IMG/VR virus record: IMGVR_UViG_3300033075_001165
Length of the DNA: 20,000 nt
Strand: one strand, 5' to 3'
From: an uncultured virus (IMG/VR IMGVR_UViG_3300033075_001165)
Taxonomy: Duplodnaviria > Heunggongvirae > Uroviricota > Caudoviricetes
The translations under genes were made by a program, and so were the position numbers. The notes under the pieces were generated by a model, which worked only from the letters and a program-made list of their open reading frames with translations, ran no database searches and was not told where the DNA came from. How positions within the stretch are numbered: position 1 is the first letter of the stretch; every line of letters begins with the position of its first letter. Below are positions 4,144 to 20,000 of this stretch, in pieces.

Positions 4144-4169
4144 AACGAATGATATTAAAAAAGGTTACA
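4144..4169 (-). promoter_or_regulatory. Putative ECF-sigma-type promoter
   Basis: Minus strand TGTAAC-N16-CGTT just upstream of the 4134 start; same motif at 19623-19649. Confidence 0.5.
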
Positions 4170-4182
4170 AAAAATTATTACT

Positions 4183-4644
4183 TTATTTATATTGTTTCTT
4201 AAGCTCTGATTCTAAGGCAAATACTCTTTCCCAATTTTCGCCAGTTAATTCTGAACGCGGATTAAAATCAAATTTAGAATGACAGCCACTACCATCTATT
4301 TTGTAGCACATTATACGTATATTATTAGGGTCTAAGCGGGCTTCTGGGCATCTGCTTTTTCTGAGTATATGAGCAAAATTATGATGTGTTATAAGGCTTA
4401 TTTTCTCTTTACATACAAAACATCTTGTTTCAACATCGCCAAGTTTTTCAAGGACAATTTCAAATACATGTTTCTCTCCCGTAGCTTCTTTTTTGTAAAC
4501 ATATCCGCCAGTTTTTTTGCCAGATGCTTTCTTTTTAGCTTGCTTATTCTCATGATTACAATATTGACAAACCCCGCTTTTAACGGGGATTATCACATCT
4601 GTTCTTGAGCACTGAACGCAATTTCCTATATGAATTTTGAACAA
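4183..4644 (-). CDS. HNH/NinG-like Zn-binding endonuclease
   Basis: CFVC...AHIL.KS..PEARLDPNNIRIMC...CH pattern; start codon uncertain. Confidence 0.65.
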   Translation of the reverse strand: MFKIHIGNCVQCSRTDVIIPVKSGVCQYCNHENKQAKKKASGKKTGGYVYKKEATGEKHVFEIVLEKLGDVETRCFVCKEKISLITHHNFAHILRKSRCPEARLDPNNIRIMCYKIDGSGCHSKFDFNPRSELTGENWERVFALESELKKQYK

Positions 4645-7309: not shown

Positions 7310-8080
7310 CTAAAACGGAAGGCCACTTTCTTCATTAGTATCAACACTATCTACACCTTGTATAATAGCATTTTTTATGGCGGGGTCAGCGAGATTAGAT
7401 TTACTGCTATTAACCGTTTCTGTGGCTACTGGCGCATTATTTGTAACGGCTGGTGTTTCGGTAGGGGCGGTGGCGTTACGTTCAAAATAAGCCTTTAAAT
7501 ACTCCTGTAATGTTTTGTCTAATTCAATAGCTTCAAGATTAGTTTCTTCTTTAATCTTTACAGCTTCAAACTTAGGCTCAAAATATTTTGTAGCTCCTTT
7601 TTTAGCGGGAGTGGCTGATTTAACCGTAACAGCACACTCCATAATTTTATTAGCTTTACAGAATTCAATCCAACTTGATAAAGCAGAACCGCGCATTTGA
7701 ATGTTGGCTAATCCTAAATTTTTGCCATCCATTTTAATTCCAATATACACCGATTGACAGTATTCAACTCCGTCTGCCGCCATTTTAGCCTTAATTTGTT
7801 CCCAAGTTCCAGTCATTTCAAGTCCTTTCTTAGAACGAACTGTTATAAGGTCTTTACGAATATCTTTTACTTCATTACTCCAATAACCGCCTTGATTGGC
7901 ATCATTAAACCCTTTTACAGTAGCGCAAGTATCAAGTACTAAAAATGTGAAGGGTAAAGGAACATCAACGTTTTGTTTTAATTCCTTATCATAATATTTA
8001 AAATTTCCGTTACTTCCTGACCATTCGTAAAAACGTGCTGCTGGATTAACTAATTGTTCATTTGGATTACTTCTACTCAT
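7310..8080 (-). CDS. Putative single-stranded DNA-binding protein
   Basis: Globular N-terminal domain, low-complexity linker and acidic tail ending EESGLPF. Confidence 0.6.
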   Translation of the reverse strand: MSRSNPNEQLVNPAARFYEWSGSNGNFKYYDKELKQNVDVPLPFTFLVLDTCATVKGFNDANQGGYWSNEVKDIRKDLITVRSKKGLEMTGTWEQIKAKMAADGVEYCQSVYIGIKMDGKNLGLANIQMRGSALSSWIEFCKANKIMECAVTVKSATPAKKGATKYFEPKFEAVKIKEETNLEAIELDKTLQEYLKAYFERNATAPTETPAVTNNAPVATETVNSSKSNLADPAIKNAIIQGVDSVDTNEESGLPF

Positions 8081-8116
8081 TTTATTTGTTTTTTAGATTA
8101 TTAATTTATCGGTTTA

Positions 8117-8162
8117 TATTTTACAAAGATACTAAAGGTTATTATATTTTACAACTTTATTT
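8117..8162 (-). promoter_or_regulatory. Bacteroidetes-type sigma-A promoter
   Basis: TATCTTTG (TAnnTTTG, -7) at 8124-8131 with TTG about 20 bp upstream; near-copy of 10774-10820. Confidence 0.65.
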
Positions 8163-8169
8163 TAAGATA

Positions 8170-8451
8170 TTAACTAAGTAATTCTAAATCAGTGTAATTA
8201 GTTTTAGTGTTTCGTTTTTTATGGTATTTACGTTGATATTTTTTGCGGGATTTTGTTAATCCTTTCTTCTTATTTCCATGTGTTTTTATAACTCCAAAAA
8301 AGGGTACGTCCAATCTAAATACCTGACCTCTTTTTAACACTCTGTTTATAGGAGAAACATAAGACTGTATTATCATACGAATGGCTTTTTCTTCAAATCT
8401 TGGATTCATCCGCGATAATTTTCTGTAAATATTATCCTTCTTAACTAGCAA
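8170..8451 (-). CDS. HU/IHF-like small basic DNA-binding protein (divergent)
   Basis: Helical N-terminus then VLKRGQVFRLDVPFFGVIK resembling the HU L..G..V...FG.F motif; very basic tail. Confidence 0.5.
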   Translation of the reverse strand: MLVKKDNIYRKLSRMNPRFEEKAIRMIIQSYVSPINRVLKRGQVFRLDVPFFGVIKTHGNKKKGLTKSRKKYQRKYHKKRNTKTNYTDLELLS

Positions 8452-9337
8452 TAGATAGTGTTTTTGTTTGATTTAAAGAATTATTTAATAACAAAGCGTC
8501 TACCTTATCAAAGTTGTTTTGCATTCCTTGTATGGTTAATCTGCAATAATAATCGCGGGTAGTTTGAATATCGGCGTGTCCTAAAAATTCACTTACGTAC
8601 ATATCAGAAGCGCCGTTATCAAGTAGGTGGGTGGCACGGGATGAGCGTAATATATGTGGATAAACTCTTTTATCTATTCCGCAAAGCTTGGCAGTGTTTT
8701 TAATAATATTTTCCACTGATTTAGCGGAATATTGCAATCTACCACCATCACCGTTAAATACATAAACGTGGGGGACAAAATCGGCTAAGTATTGGATAAG
8801 TAGTTCTTTTGTTTGTTCAGGGATTGTAATCACTCTGCTTTTACCATATTTGCTTCCTATTATTGTTATTCTTCTATCGTGGGATAAATGCTCTATTTTA
8901 AGATTAAGTAGTTCTCCGCGCCTTAAAGCGCCATAATAAAGCAAATTAATAATCGCCAGATGTTTTAAATAAATAGGGGCATTACACATAGCCATACATT
9001 CTTGATAACTTAAAATGTTAGGAGTTTTAAGGGGATTGTCGTGATATTCTAAGTTTTTACATTGAGTGTATTTGCCATTAATTTTATAAAGACGTTTTAT
9101 AGATGCTATGAATGAATTTATATAAGCTGGAGAATATTCTTGTTCTTTTAAATAAACAATATAATCTTCAAGTTTTTCTTGGTTGCACAGTAGCACTGAA
9201 ATAGAGTCAAATTTACCCCATTCCATAAACATTCCTATGTTGTTACAATAAGTTTTAGCAGTTTTGAAATTTCCACCAACTGCCAAAATCTTTCGACTAA
9301 ATTTTTTTAAAAATTCTTTATTTTCTTCTTGTAACAT
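8441..9337 (-). CDS. Tyrosine recombinase, putative cassette integrase of the integron-like system
   Basis: Catalytic set intact: LRRGE (R), SKYGKSR (K), HILR (HxxR), LGH, TTRDYY (Y). No IntI-type insertion between the K loop and YVF. Divergent from an attI-like site 45 bp upstream. Confidence 0.9.
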   Translation of the reverse strand: MLQEENKEFLKKFSRKILAVGGNFKTAKTYCNNIGMFMEWGKFDSISVLLCNQEKLEDYIVYLKEQEYSPAYINSFIASIKRLYKINGKYTQCKNLEYHDNPLKTPNILSYQECMAMCNAPIYLKHLAIINLLYYGALRRGELLNLKIEHLSHDRRITIIGSKYGKSRVITIPEQTKELLIQYLADFVPHVYVFNGDGGRLQYSAKSVENIIKNTAKLCGIDKRVYPHILRSSRATHLLDNGASDMYVSEFLGHADIQTTRDYYCRLTIQGMQNNFDKVDALLLNNSLNQTKTLSIAS

Positions 9338-9385
9338 ATTGATTGTTAATTTGTTTTTATATAGAATGCGTTAATAAGAGAGTTA
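9292..9385 (+). repeat. 94-bp direct repeat copy 1: integrase 5' end plus attI-like site (attI-1, crossover G|TT at 9382)
   Basis: 93/94 identical to 15448-15541 (single C/T at 9328 vs 15484); identity stops right after ...AGAGAGTTA. Confidence 0.92.
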
Positions 9386-9425
9386 TGTTCAATTTTATTT
9401 TATTAATTTTTAAAAGCCTACGCAC

Positions 9426-9773
9426 CTATGTTCGTGTATAGTCAATCCCTCTATCATCATAATCCCAATCACTATCAATAGTAAATTTATCAATCATTTC
9501 TGTTTGGTATTCTATTGATTTTTTCAGCCCCTCAATTTGCGTTTTAAGTCCTTTTACTTTCAACTCTCTTTGCTCTTTAATGTATTGTTTTGCTTCATCT
9601 AAACTTTTGAAATATTTATCTGAAACCATACTTAAACAAATTCGCCAATTGTATTCAGTTCCTCTGCTTCTCAACGCTCTAACAAATGCGTATCTGTCTG
9701 TCAGGTTTACGCAATCACGTTCCCATATTCTAACTAAATCATCTTTTACTACATACACTTTGAAAAATTCCAT
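9426..9773 (-). CDS. Cassette 1 hypothetical protein
   Basis: ATG at 9773 (MEFFKVY...) preferred; the upstream in-frame extension to 9818 runs through an inverted repeat. Confidence 0.7.
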   Translation of the reverse strand: MEFFKVYVVKDDLVRIWERDCVNLTDRYAFVRALRSRGTEYNWRICLSMVSDKYFKSLDEAKQYIKEQRELKVKGLKTQIEGLKKSIEYQTEMIDKFTIDSDWDYDDRGIDYTRT

Positions 9774-9834
9774 TTCCTTCGCTTTTTTAAAAATTAATAA
9801 AATAAAACTGCCACACACACTTGCCTACGCACCA

Positions 9835-9914
9835 ACATAACACAACCTAAAATCAAACCGCCATCACCAAACCGCTTATAAAGGCGGTCAGCTTTTAGCT
9901 TGATGCCGTTAGCG
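9835..9914 (+). other. attC-like site 1 (80 bp)
   Basis: ACATAAC-A-CAACCTAAAA..ACCGCC / GGCGGT..TTTTAGCTTG-ATGCC-GTTAGCG; AACATAAC complements GTTATGTT at 9382. Confidence 0.85.
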
Positions 9915-9920
9915 GTAATG

Positions 9921-10703
9921 CTAAAAACCGCATCGCTGACAAGCAATCTCATAATATTTAGGTTCTTTTTCAATCCCGATAAATTTACGGTTAAGTTCTT
10001 TTGCAGCCAAGCAAGTAGTTCCGCTTCCCATAGTGTTATCCATCACATTCATTCCTTCGTTAGTAAATGTACTAATCAACCACTTTAATAAACCTATTGG
10101 CTTTTCTGTTCTATGCTTTGCAATACTTGGATGTATTTTTTCAAAAGTCAATATACTTTTAGGGTGTTTCATATCACCAAGTATTTCTTTATTATCCACA
10201 AAATCAAACGCACCATAGTTATTATTGGCAGTTTGTTTTGGCTTCCCTTTACTGTGGTTTGGTTTTCCTTTTACTTTTTGTGGGTTGTAAATCGGCTGTT
10301 TTCTATAAAATACCATTATATCCTCGTGGCTTCGTAAAGGCATCCTGTTTGCGTTTAAAAATCCACTTGTAAGCACTTTGTCCCAAATCAAATTGTATTT
10401 ATGGTTTTTATCACTAAGCATCATTAATGCAGTAAACTTGTCCTGCCCAAATAAAACAATCGGAGCGTTTGGTTTTACAATTCGCCAATACTGTTCCCAT
10501 AAATTTTCAGGGTCAATCATTATATCATCTTTATTTTGCGTTACCTCATAAGGCAAATCGCAAAGCACCATATCAATACTATTATCAGGTATCAAAGGCA
10601 TAATATCCAAGCAATCGCCTTGAAATAAAGCACTACCGCTAACATCGGCTATATGCAATAGCGGGGTCGGTGCGTTCTTCAACATTTGTTCTACTATCAT
10701 CAT
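9921..10703 (-). CDS. Cassette 2: amino (m6A/m4C) DNA methyltransferase, beta class
   Basis: GDCLD, DLPY (motif IV) N-terminal; H.TEKP and DNTMGSGTT (motif I) C-terminal. Confidence 0.92.
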   Translation of the reverse strand: MMIVEQMLKNAPTPLLHIADVSGSALFQGDCLDIMPLIPDNSIDMVLCDLPYEVTQNKDDIMIDPENLWEQYWRIVKPNAPIVLFGQDKFTALMMLSDKNHKYNLIWDKVLTSGFLNANRMPLRSHEDIMVFYRKQPIYNPQKVKGKPNHSKGKPKQTANNNYGAFDFVDNKEILGDMKHPKSILTFEKIHPSIAKHRTEKPIGLLKWLISTFTNEGMNVMDNTMGSGTTCLAAKELNRKFIGIEKEPKYYEIACQRCGF

Positions 10704-10766
10704 TCGTTCTATATTTTAAGTTTTGTGTTTCAAATCCGCTACTGCACATAGCCGTAGTCGTTATAC
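10637..10766 (+). other. attC-like site 2 (130 bp)
   Basis: CGCTAAC-AT-CGGCTATATGCAATAGCGG / CCGCTACTGCACATAGCCG-TAGTC-GTTATAC; AGCACTACCGCTAAC complements the cassette start GTTAGCGGTAATGCT at 14/15. Confidence 0.9.
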
Positions 10767-10773
10767 ATCATTT

Positions 10774-10820
10774 TATACTACAAAGATAATAAAAGGTTAC
10801 AATATTTAATAACTTTATTT
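10774..10820 (-). promoter_or_regulatory. Bacteroidetes-type promoter pointing into array 1 and the integrase
   Basis: TATCTTTG at 10781-10788; about 45 bp aligns with the 8117-8162 promoter. Confidence 0.65.
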
Positions 10821-10852
10821 GTTAAATGTTTAAAACTTGGTTCATCCGCCGA

Positions 10853-12220
10853 TTAAAACGTTTCATTACTACCACTTGAAATACCCTCTGGAACGTAATC
10901 AGAGTACTTAGAATAGCGTCCGTCAAATCGGGCATATACAGGTCTGGGTGTAACATATCTGCTCTTACCAAGCCCTATTTCAACTACACCCTTTAAACTA
11001 TTGCCGTTTTCATCCACTGGATTCTTATCATAATATTCTGGGCGGTATAACAACAACACTAATATACCAACAGCCTCGATGCCTCCTGAGCCTTTTAAAT
11101 CGCTCATGCGAGGGCGAGGGGGCACACGTCTTTCAACATCGCGGGATAACTGAGATAATAGCACCATGCAAATATTGTATTTCTTAGCGATATTATTTAA
11201 TTGTTGACAACGCAAGTCTAATATCTGTTCATCTGATTTATTTTTTATTTCGTCAGGGGTATTGTTCATTAACTGCAAGTAATCTATAAAGCAAAGGATA
11301 GGGATAGTCATCGGCGTTTTTTTTCGCATCTTTCTAAATTTATTCTCCACATATTGCCAAGTTATACCCGCGGTATCATCTATCAACAGATTGTCTTTAA
11401 ATCGATTTCTTATTCCTTTAATGACGTTTATATCATCTTCGCCAGCGTTCCCGCTTCTAAGTGTAAAAGAATTGATTTCTGTGGCGTTTGATATGATGTT
11501 AGTCATAATCTCAATAGCTGGCATTTCAAGGCTAAAGAAAATAGTTGGCACTCTATCTTCAATAGCATTCTTTTTTAAGATGGTAACAAGAAACGCGGTT
11601 TTGCCCATTGCAGGGCGACCAGCGATTATATTAACCCCCTGCATTATGCCGCCAGTTTTTTCATCAAGTTCTTTTACTCCAAATGAATATCCAACTAAGG
11701 CTTTTTTATTTTCTTTAAGGTCAATTATCCTTTGTAAGGCTTCTTCAAAATATTCATCAATCTGTTTATCTTTAGATACATTATTTATTACCCCTTCAAT
11801 ATCTGTAATCTTGTTTTTAACCTTATCCAACACTTCTTGAACTTCACCATGTTCTGAACTAAAATCCGTATGAGCTTCATAGAGTACGGGTAACATTTTT
11901 CGGCGGACAAGATTATCAAATAGTATTTTCACCTTTGGCTCAGACTTAAGTGACGTGTTCATGTCAAATACAGCTTTGGAGCATAAATCTATTGATGTGT
12001 TTTTAGGATAACCAAGTTTTGTAAGTTCGTTTAAAAGAATAGAGAAATCGGTGGTAATGCTTTTTTGATGATTAAGCTTTATTATTTTATAAACCTGTTG
12101 TTTTATTTTAGAGGTAAAAATATGTTCTGAAACAAGGTGTTCGCAAGTTTCAAATAGGTCGGGCTTAGAACAGTATGTTCCAAGAATTTTATTTTCTATG
12201 TCATCAAGGTTACTGGTCAT
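10853..12220 (-). CDS. dnaB: Replicative DNA helicase, DnaB-like
   Basis: AGRPAMGKT, FFSLEM, IDYLQL, LLSQLSR, PRMSDLKGSGGIE motifs. Confidence 0.95.
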   Translation of the reverse strand: MTSNLDDIENKILGTYCSKPDLFETCEHLVSEHIFTSKIKQQVYKIIKLNHQKSITTDFSILLNELTKLGYPKNTSIDLCSKAVFDMNTSLKSEPKVKILFDNLVRRKMLPVLYEAHTDFSSEHGEVQEVLDKVKNKITDIEGVINNVSKDKQIDEYFEEALQRIIDLKENKKALVGYSFGVKELDEKTGGIMQGVNIIAGRPAMGKTAFLVTILKKNAIEDRVPTIFFSLEMPAIEIMTNIISNATEINSFTLRSGNAGEDDINVIKGIRNRFKDNLLIDDTAGITWQYVENKFRKMRKKTPMTIPILCFIDYLQLMNNTPDEIKNKSDEQILDLRCQQLNNIAKKYNICMVLLSQLSRDVERRVPPRPRMSDLKGSGGIEAVGILVLLLYRPEYYDKNPVDENGNSLKGVVEIGLGKSRYVTPRPVYARFDGRYSKYSDYVPEGISSGSNETF

Positions 12221-12765
12221 GATTTAAAATTTAAATAAGCAAATTCGCCAAAAAGTTCTTTGGCTTTTTTATCATAAGCTAAAGCTGCGTCTAATTCGTT
12301 TTTAAAACATCCTATGTGTATTTTTTTATTTTGAAATCCAATTGATGCAGTCCAAGAATAATATTCTTTTTTTATTCCGTGTTTAAGAGTGTGTTTTGTT
12401 TTTTTTAATGTAACTCCTTTGTAAATGGAGAATAGGTTTTTGTTAAACCCTCTATTAATATTGTTTTGAGAATGAGTTGCTATTCTTAAATTTATTTTCT
12501 GATTATTAACTCCGTTTCTATCGGCATGGTCTACAAATGTTTTTGGGTCTGTTAAATTCATTATAAACCTATGCATTTGCACCATTTGTCGTTTTCCAGT
12601 TAAATTATTTTTTATTCCCGCAGTAGCGTAAAAACAACTATCTCCCTTGATGGCATTCCAATTATACATATTTACTTTAAAAAAATCTTCGTCATCAACT
12701 TGAGCAAATTTTGGAGCGTCCTTGTGCTTGTTTTCTTTAAATTTGTTTAATTTTATTAATTTCAT
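12217..12765 (-). CDS. HNH homing endonuclease with C-terminal AP2 domain
   Basis: AQVDDED, MHRFIM, VDHADRNGVNNQKINLR; AP2-like W.ASI...IGCF..E.DAALAYD..A..LFGEFAYLNF. ATG at 12765 preferred over 12876. Confidence 0.9.
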   Translation of the reverse strand: MKLIKLNKFKENKHKDAPKFAQVDDEDFFKVNMYNWNAIKGDSCFYATAGIKNNLTGKRQMVQMHRFIMNLTDPKTFVDHADRNGVNNQKINLRIATHSQNNINRGFNKNLFSIYKGVTLKKTKHTLKHGIKKEYYSWTASIGFQNKKIHIGCFKNELDAALAYDKKAKELFGEFAYLNFKS

Positions 12766-12888
12766 ATTTAAAATGTTCCCTACTCCACTAAAGGCTACAC
12801 CGCTACCCTTATGGGTATTGGACAATAATGTTTCGGGAATATTTTTAATGTTTTTCATAGAACGATGTAGCGGCACAAAGATGCTAAA

Positions 12889-13254
12889 TTATTCTTTTTG
12901 AAAAAAATTATTTACTACTGAATTTTCTTTGTTATTAACAATTTTATTGACCTCAACAAACCAAACTCCCATCATTTTTTGTTTCCAGTTTTTCACTTGG
13001 TTTCCTTTAGAATCTTTCCATCCAGCTATGTCATAGTAATTAAAAGCCTTTTCTGCTGAAACTTCACTATACCCTTTCTCTTTAAAATAAGCTTTTACTT
13101 CTTCAAGTGTCGGTGGAATAAACTTAGGCTTCACTTTCTTATTATAAACACCAAGTTTAGTGAGTTGAATATTCCCATCTACTACTATATATTTAAAGAT
13201 AGTACCGTTCATTACGAACTCAGTTGATTCGGGGATTATAATAGGCTTGCTCAT
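12889..13254 (-). CDS. Replication initiator/replisome-organizer-like C-terminal domain protein
   Basis: FIPPTLEEV..YF...FNYY...GW.....VKNWK motif; upstream of DnaB. Confidence 0.65.
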   Translation of the reverse strand: MSKPIIIPESTEFVMNGTIFKYIVVDGNIQLTKLGVYNKKVKPKFIPPTLEEVKAYFKEKGYSEVSAEKAFNYYDIAGWKDSKGNQVKNWKQKMMGVWFVEVNKIVNNKENSVVNNFFQKE

Positions 13255-13601
13255 TACTCCTCAATTATAGGATTCTGAATAGTTACTTTGTTTTCTACTG
13301 GGGGTACTTGTTCTGCTAAATCACTTATAATACCTTTTTGCAACGATTTAAGCTCACTTATCAACCTTACTACATTATGCTTATGCGCTTTGTAATGCTC
13401 GTTGTAAAGAGGTCTATTGGATTCTTTTACTTTGTTTTGATAATCCAGTGTATTCTCAGCAACAATTTGAGCAAAAGAAACGGCGGCTAATGCGTTTTTG
13501 GTGGAATCAAGTTCGCTCATATCTTCGTCAAAAGAGATGCTAAATGTTTTGTCGTCATATTCTATTGAGAAATTTAGCGACCCTGTTAGTTTTTGTGTCA
13601 T
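13254..13601 (-). CDS. Hypothetical protein
   Basis: 115 aa, TAATG coupling with the next gene. Confidence 0.7.
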   Translation of the reverse strand: MTQKLTGSLNFSIEYDDKTFSISFDEDMSELDSTKNALAAVSFAQIVAENTLDYQNKVKESNRPLYNEHYKAHKHNVVRLISELKSLQKGIISDLAEQVPPVENKVTIQNPIIEE

Positions 13602-13602
13602 A

Positions 13603-15150
13603 TTATTTGGTTTTTCTATTGTTTATTTCATCAAATGCTTTTATTGCCTGTGCCTTACTTACAAATCCATCTACTTTATATCCCTTTATCCTTAATAAAT
13701 TTACCTGTGCCTCACTTGCTGGTTGAGATAAAAATATTTCATTAATCTGTTGTTTTGTGTAAGCTACATCTATAATATTAAATCCCCAATTTTTTATTGC
13801 ATTAAGCTGGGCTAAAGTTGCAGGCTCACTCATCTTAGGAGAAAGGTTTAGTTTAACACGGGGTAAAATTAATAAATTTACATGTTCATCTTTGTCTCTG
13901 TTAGTATCTATTTTTGTTAATCTTATTTCCCTGTCCTCAATTAATTTTTGTCTTTTTTCGGCTGATATAAAACATCTGTCTTGAGGTTCTTTTTCTTTTT
14001 CAATTTCGTGACAATTAATTAAATTATGTTTAGTGGTTAAATCGATAAAATCTAATACCGTCATTTTTTGACCAAATCTTCTAACGTAATTATCGTCTTT
14101 TAAACGAGTGCCGCGCCCTAATTGTTGAATGTATCGTGCCTTAGATTTAGTGGGTGCTACACATCCAATTATGCCAGTATTCGGCGCGTCAAAACCACAT
14201 GTTAAAATATTTACGTTTACTAAAACATCAATTTTACCTTCTTTGTATGCTTTAATTTTATGGCTTCTATCGCCAGTTAATTGTTCATCACTACTTACGG
14301 CTTCGGCATTCACACCTTTCATTTTGAATGATTCAACCAAGTCCAAAGCGTGTAAAATATCTACTGCAAAAAATATACCCTGTCTTCCATTACCATACTT
14401 AATATAAGAATCAGCCACCAAATTATTTCGAGACAAACAATTTACAGTTCCAGCTAATTCTTTTTGATTAAACTCCCCTCCTAATGTTTTTACTTTATCA
14501 AGACTAACGTTTGTTTTTACACGCACACAATCTATTTCACACAAATAACCTTCATCTATAGCTGTTTTAATTTCGTATTCGTAAACTTTCTCGGTAAATA
14601 AATTGCTGAGTTGTAATCCGTCAAGACGTTCGTCGGTTGCTGTTATACCGAGAAGTAATTTAGGGTTGAAATATTGGGCTGATTTAATGAATGTGGGACT
14701 CATAAAAAGATGAGCTTCGTCACATATAACAAATTCCATTTCATCAGGGTCAAATAGATGAAGGTTTCTGTGTAACGATTGAGCTGAACACATCACAATA
14801 TTACCATGTGTTTGTTTTACATCAGCCTTTACAAGTCCCATTTTAAATTCTCCGCCCGCAAAAACACCGCCATCTTTAATGTAATCAACAAATCCAAGCT
14901 CTTCTATGTGATTGGATAGGCTATCGTCAAAACGCTCTCTAATAAAGGCTAATGAGCTTTGGTCTATTAATTCTTCAGTATGGGTAATCCAAATTCCTCG
15001 TGTATAACCAAGCCTTTCAATTAGCTTAACAACTGAAAAAGTTTTACCACTTCCCACAGGTAACACCGCAAGTTGTTTATCGGAGCCTCTGTTTAGAGCT
15101 TCAATAACCGCTTCGTGAAACGTATGTTGATATGGGCGGATAGTTTTCAA
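13603..15150 (-). CDS. Superfamily 2 (DEAH) DNA helicase
   Basis: RPYQ, PVGSGKT, CDEAH, GITAT, GFDAP, QQLGRGTR; TTG start abutting the upstream stop. Confidence 0.93.
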   Translation of the reverse strand: MKTIRPYQHTFHEAVIEALNRGSDKQLAVLPVGSGKTFSVVKLIERLGYTRGIWITHTEELIDQSSLAFIRERFDDSLSNHIEELGFVDYIKDGGVFAGGEFKMGLVKADVKQTHGNIVMCSAQSLHRNLHLFDPDEMEFVICDEAHLFMSPTFIKSAQYFNPKLLLGITATDERLDGLQLSNLFTEKVYEYEIKTAIDEGYLCEIDCVRVKTNVSLDKVKTLGGEFNQKELAGTVNCLSRNNLVADSYIKYGNGRQGIFFAVDILHALDLVESFKMKGVNAEAVSSDEQLTGDRSHKIKAYKEGKIDVLVNVNILTCGFDAPNTGIIGCVAPTKSKARYIQQLGRGTRLKDDNYVRRFGQKMTVLDFIDLTTKHNLINCHEIEKEKEPQDRCFISAEKRQKLIEDREIRLTKIDTNRDKDEHVNLLILPRVKLNLSPKMSEPATLAQLNAIKNWGFNIIDVAYTKQQINEIFLSQPASEAQVNLLRIKGYKVDGFVSKAQAIKAFDEINNRKTK

Positions 15151-15423
15151 TTATACTTTAAACTCAATAGGTGAAACATTAATTGACACTATAATTTCTT
15201 CTTTTTGTAATTGTGATAAGAAAGCATTTACTAAATGTGTCTTGTATGTGTTATGGTTTTTGTTTGATAATTTCCAGCATTTCTTTTTTACATCCATCGG
15301 CAGTTCAATTTTCTTCACTTCTTCTATCCAATCATAAATAAGATGCCCGCTTGAGCAAGTTCCATGTTCATAGAATGATTTTAATCCATGTGCGATTAAT
15401 TGTGTCCGCCAATCAATTTTCAT
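15151..15423 (-). CDS. Hypothetical protein
   Basis: 90 aa, abuts the helicase start. Confidence 0.65.
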   Translation of the reverse strand: MKIDWRTQLIAHGLKSFYEHGTCSSGHLIYDWIEEVKKIELPMDVKKKCWKLSNKNHNTYKTHLVNAFLSQLQKEEIIVSINVSPIEFKV

Positions 15424-15493
15424 TTATTAGACAAATCATTGTTTTTGTTCGACTAAATTTTTTTAAAAATTCTTTATTTTCTTTTTGTAACAT
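15413..15493 (-). pseudogene. Integrase N-terminal remnant (26-aa ORF MLQKENKEFLKKFSRTKTMICLINEN)
   Basis: First 15 codons match the integrase start (one E>K change); the stop overlaps the start region of 15151-15423. Confidence 0.7.
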
Positions 15494-15541
15494 ATTGATT
15501 GTTAATTTGTTTTTATATAGAATGCGTTAATAAGAGAGTTA
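15448..15541 (+). repeat. 94-bp direct repeat copy 2: attI-like site 2 (crossover G|TT at 15538)
   Basis: 93/94 identical to 9292-9385; diverges after GTTA into cassette 3. Confidence 0.92.
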
Positions 15542-15550
15542 GCGGTAATA

Positions 15551-15937
15551 CTAATACAAGTCCTCCGAGAATAATCTGTTACCTCTAATTTCTTTAATAT
15601 CCATTACCTGATTTTCTCTCAATGCAATAATTAGTGCTTCTTCACGGCTTACAAATCTGTTTTTAGAAGTAAGAAAGCCTTGTTCATTTTCTCCGCTTTC
15701 AGCATCTCGCAAACCAGTTACAGCACATTTGGTATAAATACATTGCCCGTGTCTATGTCCGCTAAATACTAATCCTGTTGGGCAGTTTTTGGGGTTTGTG
15801 CTTTCAAATGGTATTTCCTTTTTAATCGGAATTTCTTTATACCAAACAGCAGCACATATTATTCGCTCCGAACCCGTACTACCGCTAACAGCACATAGGC
15901 AAAAAAGCCGTTTCAGTTTCATAAGAATATTTTTCAT
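15551..15937 (-). CDS. Cassette 3 hypothetical phage protein
   Basis: IICAA.W...G.RH..C...QGFLTSKNRFVSREEA..IA...Q....LFSEDLY resembles a conserved phage family; candidate starts (15946/15937/15922) all lie inside attC3. Confidence 0.8.
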   Translation of the reverse strand: MKNILMKLKRLFCLCAVSGSTGSERIICAAVWYKEIPIKKEIPFESTNPKNCPTGLVFSGHRHGQCIYTKCAVTGLRDAESGENEQGFLTSKNRFVSREEALIIALRENQVMDIKEIRGNRLFSEDLY

Positions 15938-16007
15938 AAGTATCAAATTTATCGTTTCAAATTAAGTTTTCGTTACGGCTTCTTCGCCTATCTGCAAAAC
16001 GTTAGCA
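15883..16007 (+). other. attC-like site 3 (125 bp)
   Basis: CGCTAAC-A-GCACATAGGCAAAAAAGCCGT / ACGGCTTCTTCGCCTATCTGC-AAAAC-GTTAGCA; left flank complements the cassette start at 13/14. Confidence 0.9.
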
Positions 16008-16937
16008 ACAAGCGGGTGAAGTGCTTCGATTAAGCGTTGTGCAAGTTTGACCATAATTATTTTTTTGCCATCCCACGTTGGTTTTTTCAAAACCATTTAG
16101 GAAAGAAAAAATATGTTCTACTATTCCAACAGTCCAACCATCACCAATTAAGTTACCTGCTTGTGCTTTATTTAAGTTCCGTGTATATCCTTCGGGTATA
16201 TTATGCAACCTTTCAAGTTCTGTTTGTGTGCAATATCGTACCCCTTTTGTTTCGTCCATTTTTTCATCCGTGTAAATTATAGTTGTCATTCCAGTTGTTG
16301 CGTATCGGTGCAACATATATCTTTGGTTTGCATCTCGGCCGCAACTTGTATTTAAACAAGTATGTTTTTTCTTGTCAGAATATCCGTATTCCAAAACATC
16401 GTTTAAGTATATTTTTTGGTCTTTAGGTTGTGGTATCGCACATTTTCTATTGCCAAATAAATCTCTATATTCGGGGCCTATATTAGTCCAAAACAATCTA
16501 TCTCTTAATGCTCCACTTACTCTACTTCCGCAAAGTCTTACAGGTTCGGTTCCTAATAAATCGGTTATTGTATTATATCCTAAATCGTCCATAATCACAT
16601 TTTCAAGTAAATAGTAAGTCGGTTTAGTTTCTTCCAGTAATCGAATGTATTCGTAAAATAACATTGATTTCATACCTTTTAACCCGTCTCTTACACTATT
16701 TGCCCTACTAAAGTCCTGGCACGGACTGCCGCCAATCAATAAATCAATTTTAGGCAAATCAATACCTTTTACTTTGGTTACATCTCCTATTTGTTTTGTG
16801 TTCGGGAAATTATCTAAAGTGCATTGTATTGCGTGTTTTTTAATCTCACTTGCAAAATAGTTTTCAATATTAAAACCTAAATTGTTAAGCGCAATTTGTC
16901 CGCAACTCATACCATCAAATAAACTTAATACGTTCAT
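16002..16937 (-). CDS. Cassette 4: C5-cytosine DNA methyltransferase
   Basis: LSLFDG (motif I), GGSPCQ (IV), ENV (VI), R.RLFW (VIII), GDGW (X); stop codon lies in the GTTA core. Confidence 0.92.
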   Translation of the reverse strand: MNVLSLFDGMSCGQIALNNLGFNIENYFASEIKKHAIQCTLDNFPNTKQIGDVTKVKGIDLPKIDLLIGGSPCQDFSRANSVRDGLKGMKSMLFYEYIRLLEETKPTYYLLENVIMDDLGYNTITDLLGTEPVRLCGSRVSGALRDRLFWTNIGPEYRDLFGNRKCAIPQPKDQKIYLNDVLEYGYSDKKKHTCLNTSCGRDANQRYMLHRYATTGMTTIIYTDEKMDETKGVRYCTQTELERLHNIPEGYTRNLNKAQAGNLIGDGWTVGIVEHIFSFLNGFEKTNVGWQKNNYGQTCTTLNRSTSPACC

Positions 16938-17025
16938 AAAATAATTTTTTAAAATCCCCCCCTCAAAAAAAATAATTATTACAGTTGTGTTTCAATTTAG
17001 CGGTCGGAGGTTAAAGTCCGCCAGT

Positions 17026-17124
17026 TGCTAACACGTTGTATATGTCAGTTTTGCCAATTGGCATTGTGCTTTAAATGAAAGTATGTGCGTGGCAAAACCG
17101 AACACATACAACTATTCGTTATAA
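17026..17124 (+). other. attC-like site 4 (99 bp)
   Basis: TGCTAAC-AC-GTTGTATATGTCAGTTTTGCCA / TGGCAAAACCGAACACATACAAC-TATTC-GTTATAA; left flank complements the cassette start at 13/15. Confidence 0.9.
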
Positions 17125-17367
17125 GCCATTTTGAAAATCGACCTCGTGAAATTCTTTGAAGTAATCTAAAAATTGTTTTCTCGCCCAATCGTGTTCACCT
17201 TTGCTCTCAATTTCTAAATCTTCTTTCAATAAGTCTATAACAAGTGCGTTGCCTCTAAATGACATTTTGATAATGTCACCTACTTCGCTATTTTCTACAG
17301 CATCACCGTAATCGTTTTCATTAAACCAATTTTTAGTTAGGTTATGATAATAAGTTGATTGTCCCAT
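17119..17367 (-). CDS. Cassette 5 small acidic hypothetical protein
   Basis: 82 aa; stop TAA lies in the GTTA core. Confidence 0.7.
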   Translation of the reverse strand: MGQSTYYHNLTKNWFNENDYGDAVENSEVGDIIKMSFRGNALVIDLLKEDLEIESKGEHDWARKQFLDYFKEFHEVDFQNGL

Positions 17368-17409
17368 TTTGATAGTTTAAATTGTTATGCCAAACACGAA
17401 TAAAACGGC

Positions 17410-17505
17410 TTATAACAGTGGTTTGGCAAAATACCGCCATAAGCATTTGTACTAAATTTCAACATTCTGCAAGGCGGTACTTCGCCAAGCCACCAAACGT
17501 TACCT
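17410..17505 (+). other. attC-like site 5 (96 bp)
   Basis: TTATAAC-A-GTGGTTTGGCAAAATACCGCC / GGCGGTACTTCGCCAAGCCAC-CAAAC-GTTACCT; left flank complements the cassette start at 14/15. Confidence 0.9.
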
Positions 17506-17584
17506 GCAAGTGCTACGATAGTGCTTCGTATCAAACTTTCGTGTTCAAAAATTTTAAATAAAAAGCCACCGCACTTTTGTTTTT

Positions 17585-18421
17585 TCAAAACAATTTGGTT
17601 TTTTGTTCTCGTTCCCATTCAAGTATTCGTTTTAATCCTTTATTGTAGTATTCTTTTTCTTTTTCCATTACAATATATTTTCTGTTAGTTTGTAAACAAG
17701 CTATTGCAGTTGTAAATACTCCAGCAGTATTATCAAGAACAATATCATTTTCATCGGTGTATGTTTTAATTAAATACTCAAATAGTTCAGTTGGCTTTTG
17801 TGTTGGGTGTATTGCTTTTGTGCCAATCACATTTGGGTATTCTAAAACATTGTGTGGAAATCCTGTAAACGCTTCGTATTCTACTCCAATTTGATTAGGT
17901 CTTGCACCCATCATTTCTCCGTGTGCCACAGCAGTTACTTTTTTGTTTCCAATACTAACTATTCCTTGTGGGTTATATCTCATTCTTTTTTCTCCAAGTT
18001 GTGATATATGTCCCATTGGTGCTTTGCTAAATACACAACATTCTTCAATAGCTGTCATTGGTCTATTTTTGCTATGTTGCCATCCATTCGGTTTGCTTTT
18101 CTTCCAATACCAACAATACTTAAATAGTTTAAAATTTGAGTTTATCAATACCGTTGTAAATGGCTGTGAAGCTGTCAGTATTATTACTCCGTTTGGCTTT
18201 ATTATCCTTTCGTATTGTTCCCAAAGTTTTTCAAATGGCAGTATCACATCCCATTTACAAGCAATAGTTCCATACGGCAAATCACAAAGTATCATATCAA
18301 TACTTTCATCTGCTATCAATGGCATCAATTCCAAACAATCTCCTAAGTGTTCACTACTTCGGTTAGTGCTTATGCTATACCATTCTTTTTCTTCGTCTGT
18401 ATCTAAATTAAAATTTCCCAC
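17585..18421 (-). CDS. Cassette 6: amino (m6A/m4C) DNA methyltransferase, beta class
   Basis: GDCLE, DLPY, HPTQKP, variant motif I DNTAGVFTT. Start uncertain: in-frame GTG at 18421, and the frame stays open to TTG at 18568. Confidence 0.88.
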   Translation of the reverse strand: MGNFNLDTDEEKEWYSISTNRSSEHLGDCLELMPLIADESIDMILCDLPYGTIACKWDVILPFEKLWEQYERIIKPNGVIILTASQPFTTVLINSNFKLFKYCWYWKKSKPNGWQHSKNRPMTAIEECCVFSKAPMGHISQLGEKRMRYNPQGIVSIGNKKVTAVAHGEMMGARPNQIGVEYEAFTGFPHNVLEYPNVIGTKAIHPTQKPTELFEYLIKTYTDENDIVLDNTAGVFTTAIACLQTNRKYIVMEKEKEYYNKGLKRILEWEREQKTKLF

Positions 18422-18488
18422 GCTTTTTTTATTTAAAATTTTTGTTTTGTTCTTCGTATCAAGTTTATCGTTAATAAACCGCACCAGC

Positions 18489-18564
18489 AGGTAACAAGGT
18501 ATATACGCAATTTTTCCACCGCTAAACCCAACGCACAACTGCGTATATACCCGAAACGTTAGTA
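18489..18564 (+). other. attC-like site 6 (76 bp)
   Basis: AGGTAAC-AA-GGTATATACGCA / TGCGTATATACC-CGAAAC-GTTAGTA (perfect 12-bp stem); left flank complements the cassette start at 13/15. Confidence 0.9.
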
Positions 18565-18568
18565 GCAA

Positions 18569-18832
18569 TTATTTTTTGCTACGTTCTGCACAAAATTTAC
18601 AGTTTCCTTTATGTGTCATCATTTGTGAGTAACCAACGCCTGATATTAAGTATTGGCAACTGTCAAATTCTATTATTGATATTTGATAGCCATTAACTTC
18701 TACTGCTGTTTTAAATATTTTTGAGCGTTCTTCGGCTCTATCTATTTCATCACAACCGCAAAAAATAACAGCTACTAACAGCACATAAGCAAGAGCAAAG
18801 CAATTGCGGTAATTTGAGATTTTTGTTTTCAT
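18569..18832 (-). CDS. Cassette 7: small putative lipoprotein
   Basis: FALAYVLLVAVIFCGC signal/lipobox-like; D.CQY...THKGNC..C motif. Confidence 0.75.
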   Translation of the reverse strand: MKTKISNYRNCFALAYVLLVAVIFCGCDEIDRAEERSKIFKTAVEVNGYQISIIEFDSCQYLISGVGYSQMMTHKGNCKFCAERSKK

Positions 18833-18904
18833 AATAATATTTAGTTTTAAGATTAAATTTTTGTTTTTAAGGCTTTGCCCTCGCTTATCTGCGATACGTT
18901 AACG
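18773..18904 (+). other. attC-like site 7 (132 bp)
   Basis: TACTAAC-A-GCACATAAGCAAGAGCAAAGC / GCTTTGCCCTCGCTTATCTGC-GATAC-GTTAACG; left flank complements the cassette start at 20/22. Confidence 0.92.
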
Positions 18905-18910
18905 GCAATT

Positions 18911-19255
18911 CTAATCTGCTCCCCACCGCTCGGATACATAATTCATTATATCTTTTAATTCGTCTGCTACAATGGTTGTCTGCCAGCTTCCATAAGTCAA
19001 CACCTCACAGCACCATTTTGAGGATTGCTTATCCCACCAACAATATCCGCAAAAGTTCCATCCACTATATTGTGCCGATAAATCTTTGCCCTTTATTTCT
19101 GTTGCTACTTTTTCATCTATGCAATGGTCAAAGTTGCTCATTACCGTTTCTCCGAAATCCTCAAAATGCTCAGGCAACCGCACATTAGAACTGCCGTTAA
19201 CAAGGGCTTTACTCAATGCCTCTGTTTCGTTTGTATTTGAAATTTTGTTTTCCAT
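18911..19255 (-). CDS. Cassette 8 hypothetical protein (Trp/acidic-rich)
   Basis: 114 aa; ATG inside attC8 after an A-rich tract. Confidence 0.75.
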   Translation of the reverse strand: MENKISNTNETEALSKALVNGSSNVRLPEHFEDFGETVMSNFDHCIDEKVATEIKGKDLSAQYSGWNFCGYCWWDKQSSKWCCEVLTYGSWQTTIVADELKDIMNYVSERWGAD

Positions 19256-19325
19256 TTTATGTTTTATTTTAAGTTGATAATTTCGTTTTCAAAGTCGGCA
19301 CTAAATAAAGCCCCAACCGTTAAAC
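19195..19325 (+). other. attC-like site 8 (131 bp)
   Basis: CGTTAAC-AA-GGGCTTTACTCAATGCC / GGCACTAAATAAAGCCC-CAACC-GTTAAAC; left flank complements the cassette start at 17/18. Confidence 0.92.
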
Positions 19326-19601
19326 CTCCCAATATCCTTTAAAAAAATCATTAATTTTTGTGTAAGGAATAACATCCTCAGCGTCTTTATAGATAGCTTG
19401 TATGTCTAATATAGCTCTGTTTTTGTTGTTAGACCAGCAGTCTTCACAAATGTCATACATACCTTCAAAAGATATTTTGTTCGGCATGGGGCGATTACAG
19501 CAGTTACAATCTGAGTGTATGCCAGCCTCTATTGCTCTGCTTACAAAGGCTTCCACTTCATCTGTATCGCGGAATATGGGGTTATTTATCGGGCGGTTCA
19601 T
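19320..19601 (-). CDS. Hypothetical Zn-finger-like protein (resident gene, no attC seen)
   Basis: CNCC...CEDC; its stop TAA forms the GTTA of attC8. Confidence 0.65.
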   Translation of the reverse strand: MNRPINNPIFRDTDEVEAFVSRAIEAGIHSDCNCCNRPMPNKISFEGMYDICEDCWSNNKNRAILDIQAIYKDAEDVIPYTKINDFFKGYWEV

Positions 19602-19622
19602 AATTATCGGTTTTAATTGTTA

Positions 19623-19649
19623 TACGAGGGTGTTTGCAAAAAGGTTACA
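19623..19649 (-). promoter_or_regulatory. Putative ECF-sigma-type promoter pointing toward array 2
   Basis: Minus strand TGTAAC-N17-CGTA; shares TGTAACCTTTTT with 4144-4169. Confidence 0.5.
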
Positions 19650-19896
19650 AAAATCTGTAATTAATTTTTTCAAGAATTAATAATTTATCAGCGTAAGTAA
19701 AATTATTCCATATTTTATTCACTTCGCTTATTGTTGGCTTAGGCTGTAAATTTTTAACCAACTTTCTATAATTCATTCTGCCGTTTTTTGTTAGTTTACC
19801 ATCTTCAATCCACCCTAAAATTTTTGTCACTGCTTCTGAGGGGTTGTTTCCATCAAACCAATATTCTTTTACAAATTTTTTCGCTGGTGAGTTCAT
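19645..19896 (-). CDS. Hypothetical protein
   Basis: 83 aa ORF co-oriented with the operon. Confidence 0.6.
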   Translation of the reverse strand: MNSPAKKFVKEYWFDGNNPSEAVTKILGWIEDGKLTKNGRMNYRKLVKNLQPKPTISEVNKIWNNFTYADKLLILEKINYRFL

Positions 19897-20000
19897 GTTT
19901 AATGCCCTAAATAAATCAAAGACGCTCTAAAATCATTAGCTCCTTCAAATTTATTGCGGGTGGCTAAGAACGTTTGTTTATCAATAGTATGGTCATCTTT

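Follow-up and report, generated by a model that had tools for sequence, protein, structure and literature searches.

Can a tyrosine recombinase that lacks the segment peculiar to integron integrases (IntI) serve an array of gene cassettes? The question is raised by a 20,000-nucleotide (nt) stretch of DNA from an uncultured virus of the Caudoviricetes (IMG/VR record IMGVR_UViG_3300033075_001165), called the window here at its full length, in which an integrase gene, P0001, stands at the end of an array of single-gene units separated by attC-like hairpins. Integron detectors and the current mechanistic model depend on the IntI segment, which reads the extrahelical bases of folded attC. The origin of this segment (I2) and of attC has been described as a chicken-and-egg problem (Escudero et al. 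2016, PMC4792948, available part), and the insertion is called 'not fully conserved' in the integron-like subgroup of Smyshlyaev et al. (2021, PMC8138268, available part). Our explanation, for which the balance of the evidence speaks, is that this phage, whose host type is probably Bacteroidota, carries an integron-type platform with P0001 as its recombinase and single genes travelling as cassettes. The literature searched gave no account of phage cassette arrays that end at an integrase without the insertion, although unopened supplements may bear on this point.

An integrase without the IntI segment

8441..9337, minus strand: integrase gene P0001, a stop-free open reading frame (ORF) of 298 amino acids (aa), tyrosine recombinase without the IntI insertion

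P0001 has the tyrosine-recombinase residues R-K-H-R-H-Y. R139, K163, H228, R231 and H254 are constant in all rows of an alignment of 75 recombinases, and within the P0001 family Y264 is invariant and Y263 nearly so. The family model PF00589, one of the models against which a first-pass annotation of the window had proposed to score the protein, matches with an E-value of 5.3e-27; the SAM-like N-terminal domain is matched weakly, and the PHROG matches are integrase families.

That annotation, made from the letters, had counted about 23 residues between SKYGKSR and YVFNG, and the translation of 8441-9337 on the minus strand gives exactly 23 (VITIPEQTKELLIQYLADFVPHV). Several comparisons locate the missing segment there. 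P0001 has 59 residues from the hairpin Arg to the His of HxxR, and the column span from R168 to H228 in the 75-recombinase alignment is 58-60 residues in nine members of its family, 61-77 in 10 XerC/XerD rows and 100 in 14/14 canonical IntIs. Against the IntI4 structure 2a3v, the P0001-family profile aligns query residues 21-179 with chain residues 20-179 and P0001 alone aligns 208-264 with 247-303, leaving a gap that corresponds to about 39 extra residues in IntI4. An AlphaFold2 model of P0001 built from 28 homologues (predicted local distance difference test score, 84.6) passes from the beta-hairpin to helix 205-218 with no helix in between. The intact active site and the missing IntI insertion are hereby confirmed, the latter as the first-pass annotation had stated.

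Structural and profile searches place P0001 near both Xer and IntI proteins. Foldseek with the model returns XerA (5hxy, E-value 3e-14) and IntI4 (template modelling score, 0.71) as top matches, and among solved structures archaeal XerA 4a8e scores highest with the family profile (128.6 bits), ahead of XerD and IntI4. With the integron-integrase model TIGR02249 the score is 80.9 bits, split into two stretches, below the model's cut-off of 265, and PRK15417 gives 35.4 bits against a cut-off of 435. The NCBIfam Xer models also stay below their cut-offs (XerA_Arch, 155.3 against 220; XerD, 118.7 against 329.6; XerC, 106.8 against 335.15). P0001 misses every curated NCBIfam cut-off and so would be annotated as a generic integrase, as had been foreseen. 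TIGR02249 likewise matches in two stretches the homologue of locus L001 (94 bits) and three related phage integrases (133-155 bits).

Cassettes and hairpin sites in the window

18899..19319, minus strand: cassette 1 (array A), hairpin 19319-19201, ORF 18911-19255; arms of 22 nt, 20 matching
18559..18898, minus strand: cassette 2 (array A), hairpin 18898-18779, ORF 18569-18832; arms of 22 nt, 20 matching
17500..18558, minus strand: cassette 3 (array A), hairpin 18558-18495, N6/N4 DNA methyltransferase ORF 17585-18568, whose true start is probably further inside the ORF
17119..17499, minus strand: cassette 4 (array A), hairpin 17499-17416, ORF 17119-17367
16002..17118, minus strand: cassette 5 (array A), hairpin 17118-17032, C5 DNA methyltransferase 16002-16937
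15539..16001, minus strand: cassette 6 (array A), hairpin 16001-15889, ORF 15551-15946 (phrog_839)
9909..10760, minus strand: cassette 7 (array B), hairpin 10760-10643 containing the start of N6/N4 DNA methyltransferase 9921-10703
10643-10629 and 9922-9908, minus strand: inverted repeat pair forming the arms of cassette 7
9383..9908, minus strand: cassette 8 (array B), hairpin 9908-9841, ORF 9426-9818, private arms, the left one with a 23-nt insertion

Eight genes on the minus strand, three DNA methyltransferases and five small genes without assigned function, are each flanked by a private inverted repeat, GTTA-X ... X'-TAAC, with arms of 14-22 nt in which 13-20 bases match. Between units the order is X'-TAAC, 5 nt, L'' (at least 12 nt), loop, L', 1-2 nt and the next GTTA-X. 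A combined hairpin test finds eight attC-like hairpins on the coding (minus) strand and none on the plus strand; in 100 shuffled versions of the window, the same test found 0.12 on average and never more than 1. Motif counts alone are not significant (TAACGTWT, 6 against 2.8 expected; TTGCNNNTAAC with one mismatch, 32 against 25), and a search for arms with loose settings yields 36 pairs where shuffled sequence yields 38. What rises above chance is confined to the long arms and the combined hairpin test.

Each arm matches its own partner. Across the 14 units of the window and L001, own arms pair at 9-10 of 11 positions in 13, as compared with a mean of 3.5/11 over 182 non-own pairs and 1-5/11 for neighbours across a hairpin. 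Position 11 is G in the left arm of 13/14 units and T opposite it in the right arm of 14/14. Several left arms fall within coding sequence, and one 18-nt stretch of DNA is read in two frames, so that the constraint on the arms acts on nucleic acid and not on protein.

The eight sites combine an inverse core AAC, a core GTT, L''/L' pairing and a variable loop, as attC sites do. Their TAAC-GTTA core distance is 62-118 nt; attC sites are 57-141 nt long. Folded as single-stranded DNA, the coding strand is more stable than its complement at 8/8 sites (-10.7 to -18.4 versus -7.9 to -16.2 kcal/mol), and the folds contain fixed G.T wobbles, a C.A mismatch and an asymmetric 5-nt bulge. The word cassette, used in the first-pass annotation, is justified by the private arms, the strand-specific hairpins (eight versus none) and the own-arm pairing. 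The hairpin of cassette 4 is 90% identical with a hairpin in another locus (L193).

Two cassette genes have features of their own. Within the C5 methyltransferase gene, 16152-16166 is arm-like and agrees at 14/15 positions with the left arm of cassette 3; run X5 contigs show loose ends on either side of it, at 16132 and 16167, and PF00145 spans just residues 1-114 of the 311-aa product. A former cassette boundary may be preserved within this gene. The N6/N4 methyltransferase cassettes at 9921-10703 and 17585-18450 are paralogues (81% identity over 74 nt), and contigs of other runs mix the two or carry a third.

The integrase gene at the end of the array

9338..9382, minus strand: attI-like stretch, 44 nt from the TAAC of cassette 8 (9385-9382) to the integrase ATG
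15448..15541, minus strand: 94-nt duplicate with one mismatch, comprising TAAC, the attI-like stretch and the first 15 integrase codons; closes array A

Both arrays stop 44 nt before an integrase start, array B at the intact gene and array A (15541-15538) at the 94-nt duplicate. All five integrase-bearing loci first examined show the same layout, with the integrase ATG 42-55 nt past a TTGCnnnTAAC-type arm on the same strand (5/5), and all five have the ATCAAT motif of the attI-like stretch. The two 94-nt direct repeats (9292-9385 and 15448-15541) bracket a 6.1-kb replication module with a helicase, an HNH endonuclease, DnaB and a methylase.

Two cassette boundaries are self-consistent on the coding strand, G|TTA and TAA|C. 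Three observations favour TAA|C: sequence comparisons break at TAAC, both arrays finish with a bare X'-TAAC and no further hairpin, and a TAnnTTTG motif, which we take to be promoter-like, sits together with the first codons of four genes in the loop of the upstream hairpin. TAA|C read on the opposite strand is G|TTA, the usual polarity of integrons.

Similar arrays in other viral genomes

A gapped pattern made from the arm letters gave at least 128 stretches in IMG/VR. Seventy-nine loci were fetched, 39 of which have at least three hairpins on one strand; they represent 34 distinct contigs, the L001 contig counted, and hold 181 hairpins and 144 units. Own arms match at 8 or more of 11 positions in 96/144 units, as against 28/1426 non-own pairs, and the G/A asymmetry at position 11 is kept in 118/144. 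The TAAC-GTTA distance peaks at 115-119 nt (73/181 hairpins), a figure biased by the search pattern. When 40 sites are aligned, the consensus folds into a hairpin with 22 base pairs, and compensatory changes occur at 17 of these.

Some of these arrays also end at an integrase gene. The array-end integrases of L178, L183 and L205 are 27-33% identical to P0001 and likewise lack the insertion, and starting from them, 80 viral loci of a related lineage were collected, 68 of them distinct. Over these 68 loci, hairpin density is 0.568/kb upstream of the integrase, 0.006/kb downstream and 0.010/kb on the other strand. Where at least 1500 nt of upstream sequence is available, a hairpin is found there in 34/42 loci and two or more in 26, whereas a downstream hairpin occurs in 2/66. 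An arm-like nT[TG]nnnnnTAAC ends 30-70 nt before the ATG in 52/64 related loci, most often at 51-52 nt, and a TAAC-to-ATG distance of 36-53 nt is conserved in 52/64. Adjacency of homologues to arrays, on which the first-pass annotation had staked its reading, is thus found in 2/2 close-family members (the window and L001) and, as the upstream and downstream counts show, in the related lineage. More distant Xer-like integrases behave otherwise: none of 162 other loci has three or more hairpins on a strand, and arrays are absent from bacterial loci (L028, L030 and others) whose integrases are more distant.

The largest array in this analysis is on a single viral contig of 169,658 nt (L178-L180, L221), of which a 16-kb stretch holds at least 17 hairpins and a second stretch 11; an insertion-less integrase stands at the end of the first stretch. 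Many contigs of the related lineage (L299-L378) stop within a few hundred bases upstream of the integrase, where assemblies may break in the repeated hairpins.

Relationship to IntI and Xer

A tree of 75 rows was computed with IQ-TREE from 14 IntI, 9 P0001-family, 25 related-lineage, 10 representative, 7 array-less viral and 10 XerC/XerD sequences. In this unrooted tree, whose rows are biased to P0001 hits and to IntIs of one phylum and include no XerA and no non-Bacteroidota IntI, a branch supported at 98/99 divides the rows into 58 (IntI, the two phage lineages and the representatives) and 17 (XerC/XerD and the array-less viral integrases). The IntI clade (100/100) excludes the P0001 family, itself a clade at 100/100.

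One canonical IntI locus, L397, which belongs to the Bacteroidota as the phage's hosts probably do, was read closely. It has sites of the phage-platform type with private arms (GTTATATGGCC...GGCCATATAAC), and its last cassette ends with GGCCATATAAC about 165 nt before a co-oriented intI. The first-pass annotation had assigned P0001 to a XerC/D-like lineage and proposed a parallel origin of integrons. Neither is supported: the family falls on the IntI side of the split, apart from XerC, XerD and the array-less Xer-like phage integrases, and a canonical integron shares its sites and its order of array, attI and integrase. Because of the 98/99 split and the sites and layout of L397, common ancestry with IntI appears more likely than independent invention, the insertion having been either never present or lost. 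The evolutionary reading should change to that of an insertion-less relative of IntI on a phage-borne integron, not a Xer-like parallel invention.

Canonical IntI scores over the TIGR02249 cut-off in 113/401 sampled genomes of the phylum to which a Psychroflexus locus belongs and in which the hosts of the phage are presumed to lie. Several of these 113 integron integrases carry in-frame stops.

Close relatives and cassettes in other contexts

About 80 proteins are 49-100% identical to P0001, and all of them are metagenomic. Clustering at 50% leaves five representatives with more than 50% identity to P0001, the next being at 33%. No homologue above 35% identity was found among one genome each of 185,579 species, the best there being at 35%, which makes an ordinary prophage integrase less likely. 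When P0001 and DnaB were each searched as single proteins against IMG/VR, no relative appeared, and a metagenome scan with P0001 gave relatives 25-35% identical among the matches listed. The best named phage integrases are 26-32% identical (tblastn), and megablast of 8000-16000 against GenBank phages gave no match. The integrase of L001 is 56% identical to P0001; its contig is viral, with terminase, DnaB and methylases, and has six units of the window type ending 55 nt before the integrase.

Contigs from four public runs (wastewater and river among the sources), that is, assemblies and not reads, were aligned to 8000-20000. Several joints between the N6 methyltransferase paralogues or within L boxes were excluded, as they are probably induced by repeats, and gaps in coverage were left out of account. 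Several contigs match a single cassette or hairpin and then diverge (15538-16003; 15538-15894, on an 811-nt contig; 17398-17502), and in one form from another run the loop of gene 1 is placed after cassette 3. The viral locus L348 contains a cassette 7 homologue that is 81% identical in one stretch and 92% in another and has unlike flanks on both sides; the similarity ends exactly at TAAC downstream and about 15 nt short of TAAC upstream. The other-run contigs and L348 thus place cassettes in other contexts with breakpoints at the core.

A larger block is also variable. On a run X1 contig, 8096 is joined to 10779 via 28 other letters, and the 93-aa ORF next to the integrase, the integrase itself and cassettes 8 and 7 are gone. 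The joint falls within a promoter-like repeat, other copies of which lie at 4160-4188, 8134-8162 and 10792-10820.

A possible mechanism and the alternatives to it

On the coding strand, a cassette would consist of C, a 5-nt spacer, L'', a loop, L', 1-2 nt, GTTA-X, the gene body and X'-TAA, the loop often containing the promoter and first codons of the gene. Once such a cassette is circular, X' would pair with X and, with L''/L', form a single long attC-type hairpin. The P0001 gene, starting 44 nt past the last TAAC, would face the place that attI occupies in a canonical integron. P0001 may cut TAA|C on the better-folding coding strand, inserting cassettes beside its own gene and excising them; such a cut would agree with the AA|C cut on the bottom strand of integrons. 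Since its group is insertion-less, P0001 would have to recognise a folded or duplex site without the I2 helix. The cassette role of P0001 is well supported by position and comparison; from its position we infer that P0001 recombines cassettes, and the cut site and single-strand use are likewise inferred. A further proposal, which we hold tentatively, is that the phages harbour an integron lineage of their own, whose integrases would be the nearest relatives of IntI, would never have gained I2 and would recombine folded attC-type hairpins without it.

Several observations weigh against a platform run by P0001. Array A, with 6/8 cassettes, is 6 kb from the intact integrase and ends at the 94-nt remnant only. 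Conserved extrahelical (flipped-out) bases were not identified in the folded sites. Adjacency to an array within the close family is known from two members (2/2), and a relative of the phage lacks block 8097-10778, integrase included (run X1 contig). PF00589 is found in 5/35 array-bearing viral records and in 0/7 at 90% completeness or more; record G016 has a match of 55 bits in a 444-aa frame. Phage P12002L has sites and no annotated integrase. Cassette variation was seen in assembled contigs only, not as single-molecule circles or joints, and the branching order within the IntI-side group has bootstrap values of 12-39. Canonical IntI is, moreover, present in the 113/401 genomes mentioned above.

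The last of these points, the lack of a PF00589 gene in 30/35 array-bearing records, the occurrence of the same site type beside canonical IntI (L397) and the recombination of a P12002L site by IntI1 (PMC9892861, available part) all favour an explanation in which canonical IntI, supplied in trans by the host or by co-resident elements, serves the cassettes. P0001 would then be a phage integrase whose task is a different one, for example lysogeny, and it would possibly integrate the phage into host integron sites. We consider this unlikely: the strand-specific spacing of arm and integrase (52/64, mode 51-52 nt) is hard to explain without a functional link, and hairpins are 95-fold in excess upstream over downstream. 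A lysogeny task also sits poorly with the 185,579 species genomes, which hold no homologue above 35% and hence no prophage copies, and no repressor or excisionase was recognised near P0001. A much less probable explanation takes the hairpins as expression signals (promoter stem-loops, terminators or RNA processing sites), the arrays as static and the integrase as unrelated to them. The start codons and the putatively promoter-like TAnnTTTG in the loops would suit it, as would the conserved G.T wobbles on the transcribed strand and the better folding of the coding strand. It does not account for private long-range arms that lie inside coding sequences in differing frames, where cutting the RNA would behead the message, nor for similarity between phages that stops exactly at TAAC, cassette order that varies among runs, or the non-random placement of the integrase; moreover, one such site has been recombined by IntI1 (PMC9892861, available part).

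Least probable, and very unlikely, is that P0001 acts as a Xer-type resolvase on a phage genome that is circular or plasmid-like, separating its dimers at a dif-like site. XerA and XerD are its top curated models and structures, and its two-domain architecture is simple. Yet all Xer cut-offs are missed (XerA 155/220, XerD 119/329.6, XerC 107/335), the 98/99 branch parts P0001 from XerC/XerD, no dif-like 11-6-11 site was noticed, and the association with arrays would be left unexplained. Two other candidates were rejected: in an invertible segment or shufflon, leaders would become joined to antisense sequence on inversion, and the phages cease to resemble each other at the arms; in a transposon with terminal inverted repeats, the arms would not vary between units beyond GTTA/TAAC as they do here.

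Comparison with known systems

A platform run by P0001 would resemble canonical integrons in its arrays of single-gene cassettes, its AAC...GTT outer boxes, L''/L' stems and variable loop, the cassette-private complementarity of the cassette start with the far box, and an integrase start that faces the last cassette over a short attI-type gap. It differs in that P0001 is without the IntI segment of about 40 residues (59 versus 100 residues), that the platform is in a phage and its attI-like gap is just 36-55 nt, and that the loops often hold the gene's own promoter-like motif and first codons. As to L397, its spacers are 7 versus 5 nt and those of the phage sites 5 versus 1-2 nt.

Clusters of attC without an integrase (CALINs) have been described in virulent phages, with bacterial IntI offered as the enzyme (Qi et al. 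2023, PMC9892861, available part). Two sites of Polaribacter phage P12002L were called attC there, and IntI1 recombined one of them at G|TT; the available part of the article has no mention of an integrase that is encoded by a phage and lacks the insertion. The arm search recovered P12002L_attC1 as the hairpin upstream of the gp35 methyltransferase unit, another P12002L hairpin is close to hairpin 2 of the window, and both cargoes are rich in N6_N4 methyltransferases. Unlike the P12002L cluster, the window array is closed by an integrase gene.

XerA, XerC and XerD are similar to P0001 in length and in a two-domain fold without accessory domains, and they include its best-scoring models and structures; P0001 differs from them in its sub-cut-off scores, in its 98/99 separation from XerC/XerD and in a context that is a cassette array and not dif/FtsK. 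On Acinetobacter plasmids, pdif modules consist of genes between inversely oriented sites and are thought to be moved by a Xer-type enzyme. At pdif, XerC/XerD use a 28-bp duplex site whose sequence is conserved, whereas the sites of the window are 60-120-nt hairpins with private arms, the enzyme being encoded at the array end.

An insertion-less recombinase at the end of an array offers a way to test how integrons arose. The question of the origin of I2 and attC becomes testable because natural insertion-less integrases hold the integrase position of attC-type arrays and fall on the IntI side of the tree, apart from XerC/XerD. If the tentative proposal of a phage lineage is true, these integrases would represent the pre-IntI state that the paradox of attC or I2 first requires, and phages would keep a store of anti-restriction methyltransferases and further accessory genes and reshuffle it. 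Questions are thereby opened about action on folded single strands, the choice of strand, the cut site and the need for replication in resolving the junction. Software keyed to the insertion would file such platforms as an integrase-less cluster plus a 'generic integrase'. The arrays indicate phages as carriers of shuffled cassettes, among which DNA methyltransferases are prominent.

Surroundings of the platform

8170..8451, minus strand: small basic ORF of 93 aa with an 11-nt overlap with the integrase stop; no family match

The window is phage DNA. Its plus strand carries a tail-fibre-like gene and a homing-endonuclease-like gene at 1-2482, and its minus strand GroES-like, RusA-like, NinB-like, DnaB, SF2 helicase and HNH endonuclease genes besides the three DNA methyltransferases. 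Rfam finds no family and ARAGORN no tRNA in the window, so that no tRNA-type attachment site is in view; gene family annotation recognised no repressor or excisionase near P0001.

The homing-endonuclease-like gene (940-1689; NUMOD1, phrog_7168) stands amid structural genes. ORF 1709-2203 has a run of GAT triplets at 1757-1822, and its tail-fibre match is weak. At 12217-12876, contigs of runs X1, X2 and X15 have 214 other letters instead of the HNH endonuclease gene, a swap that resembles the presence/absence polymorphism typical of homing endonucleases.

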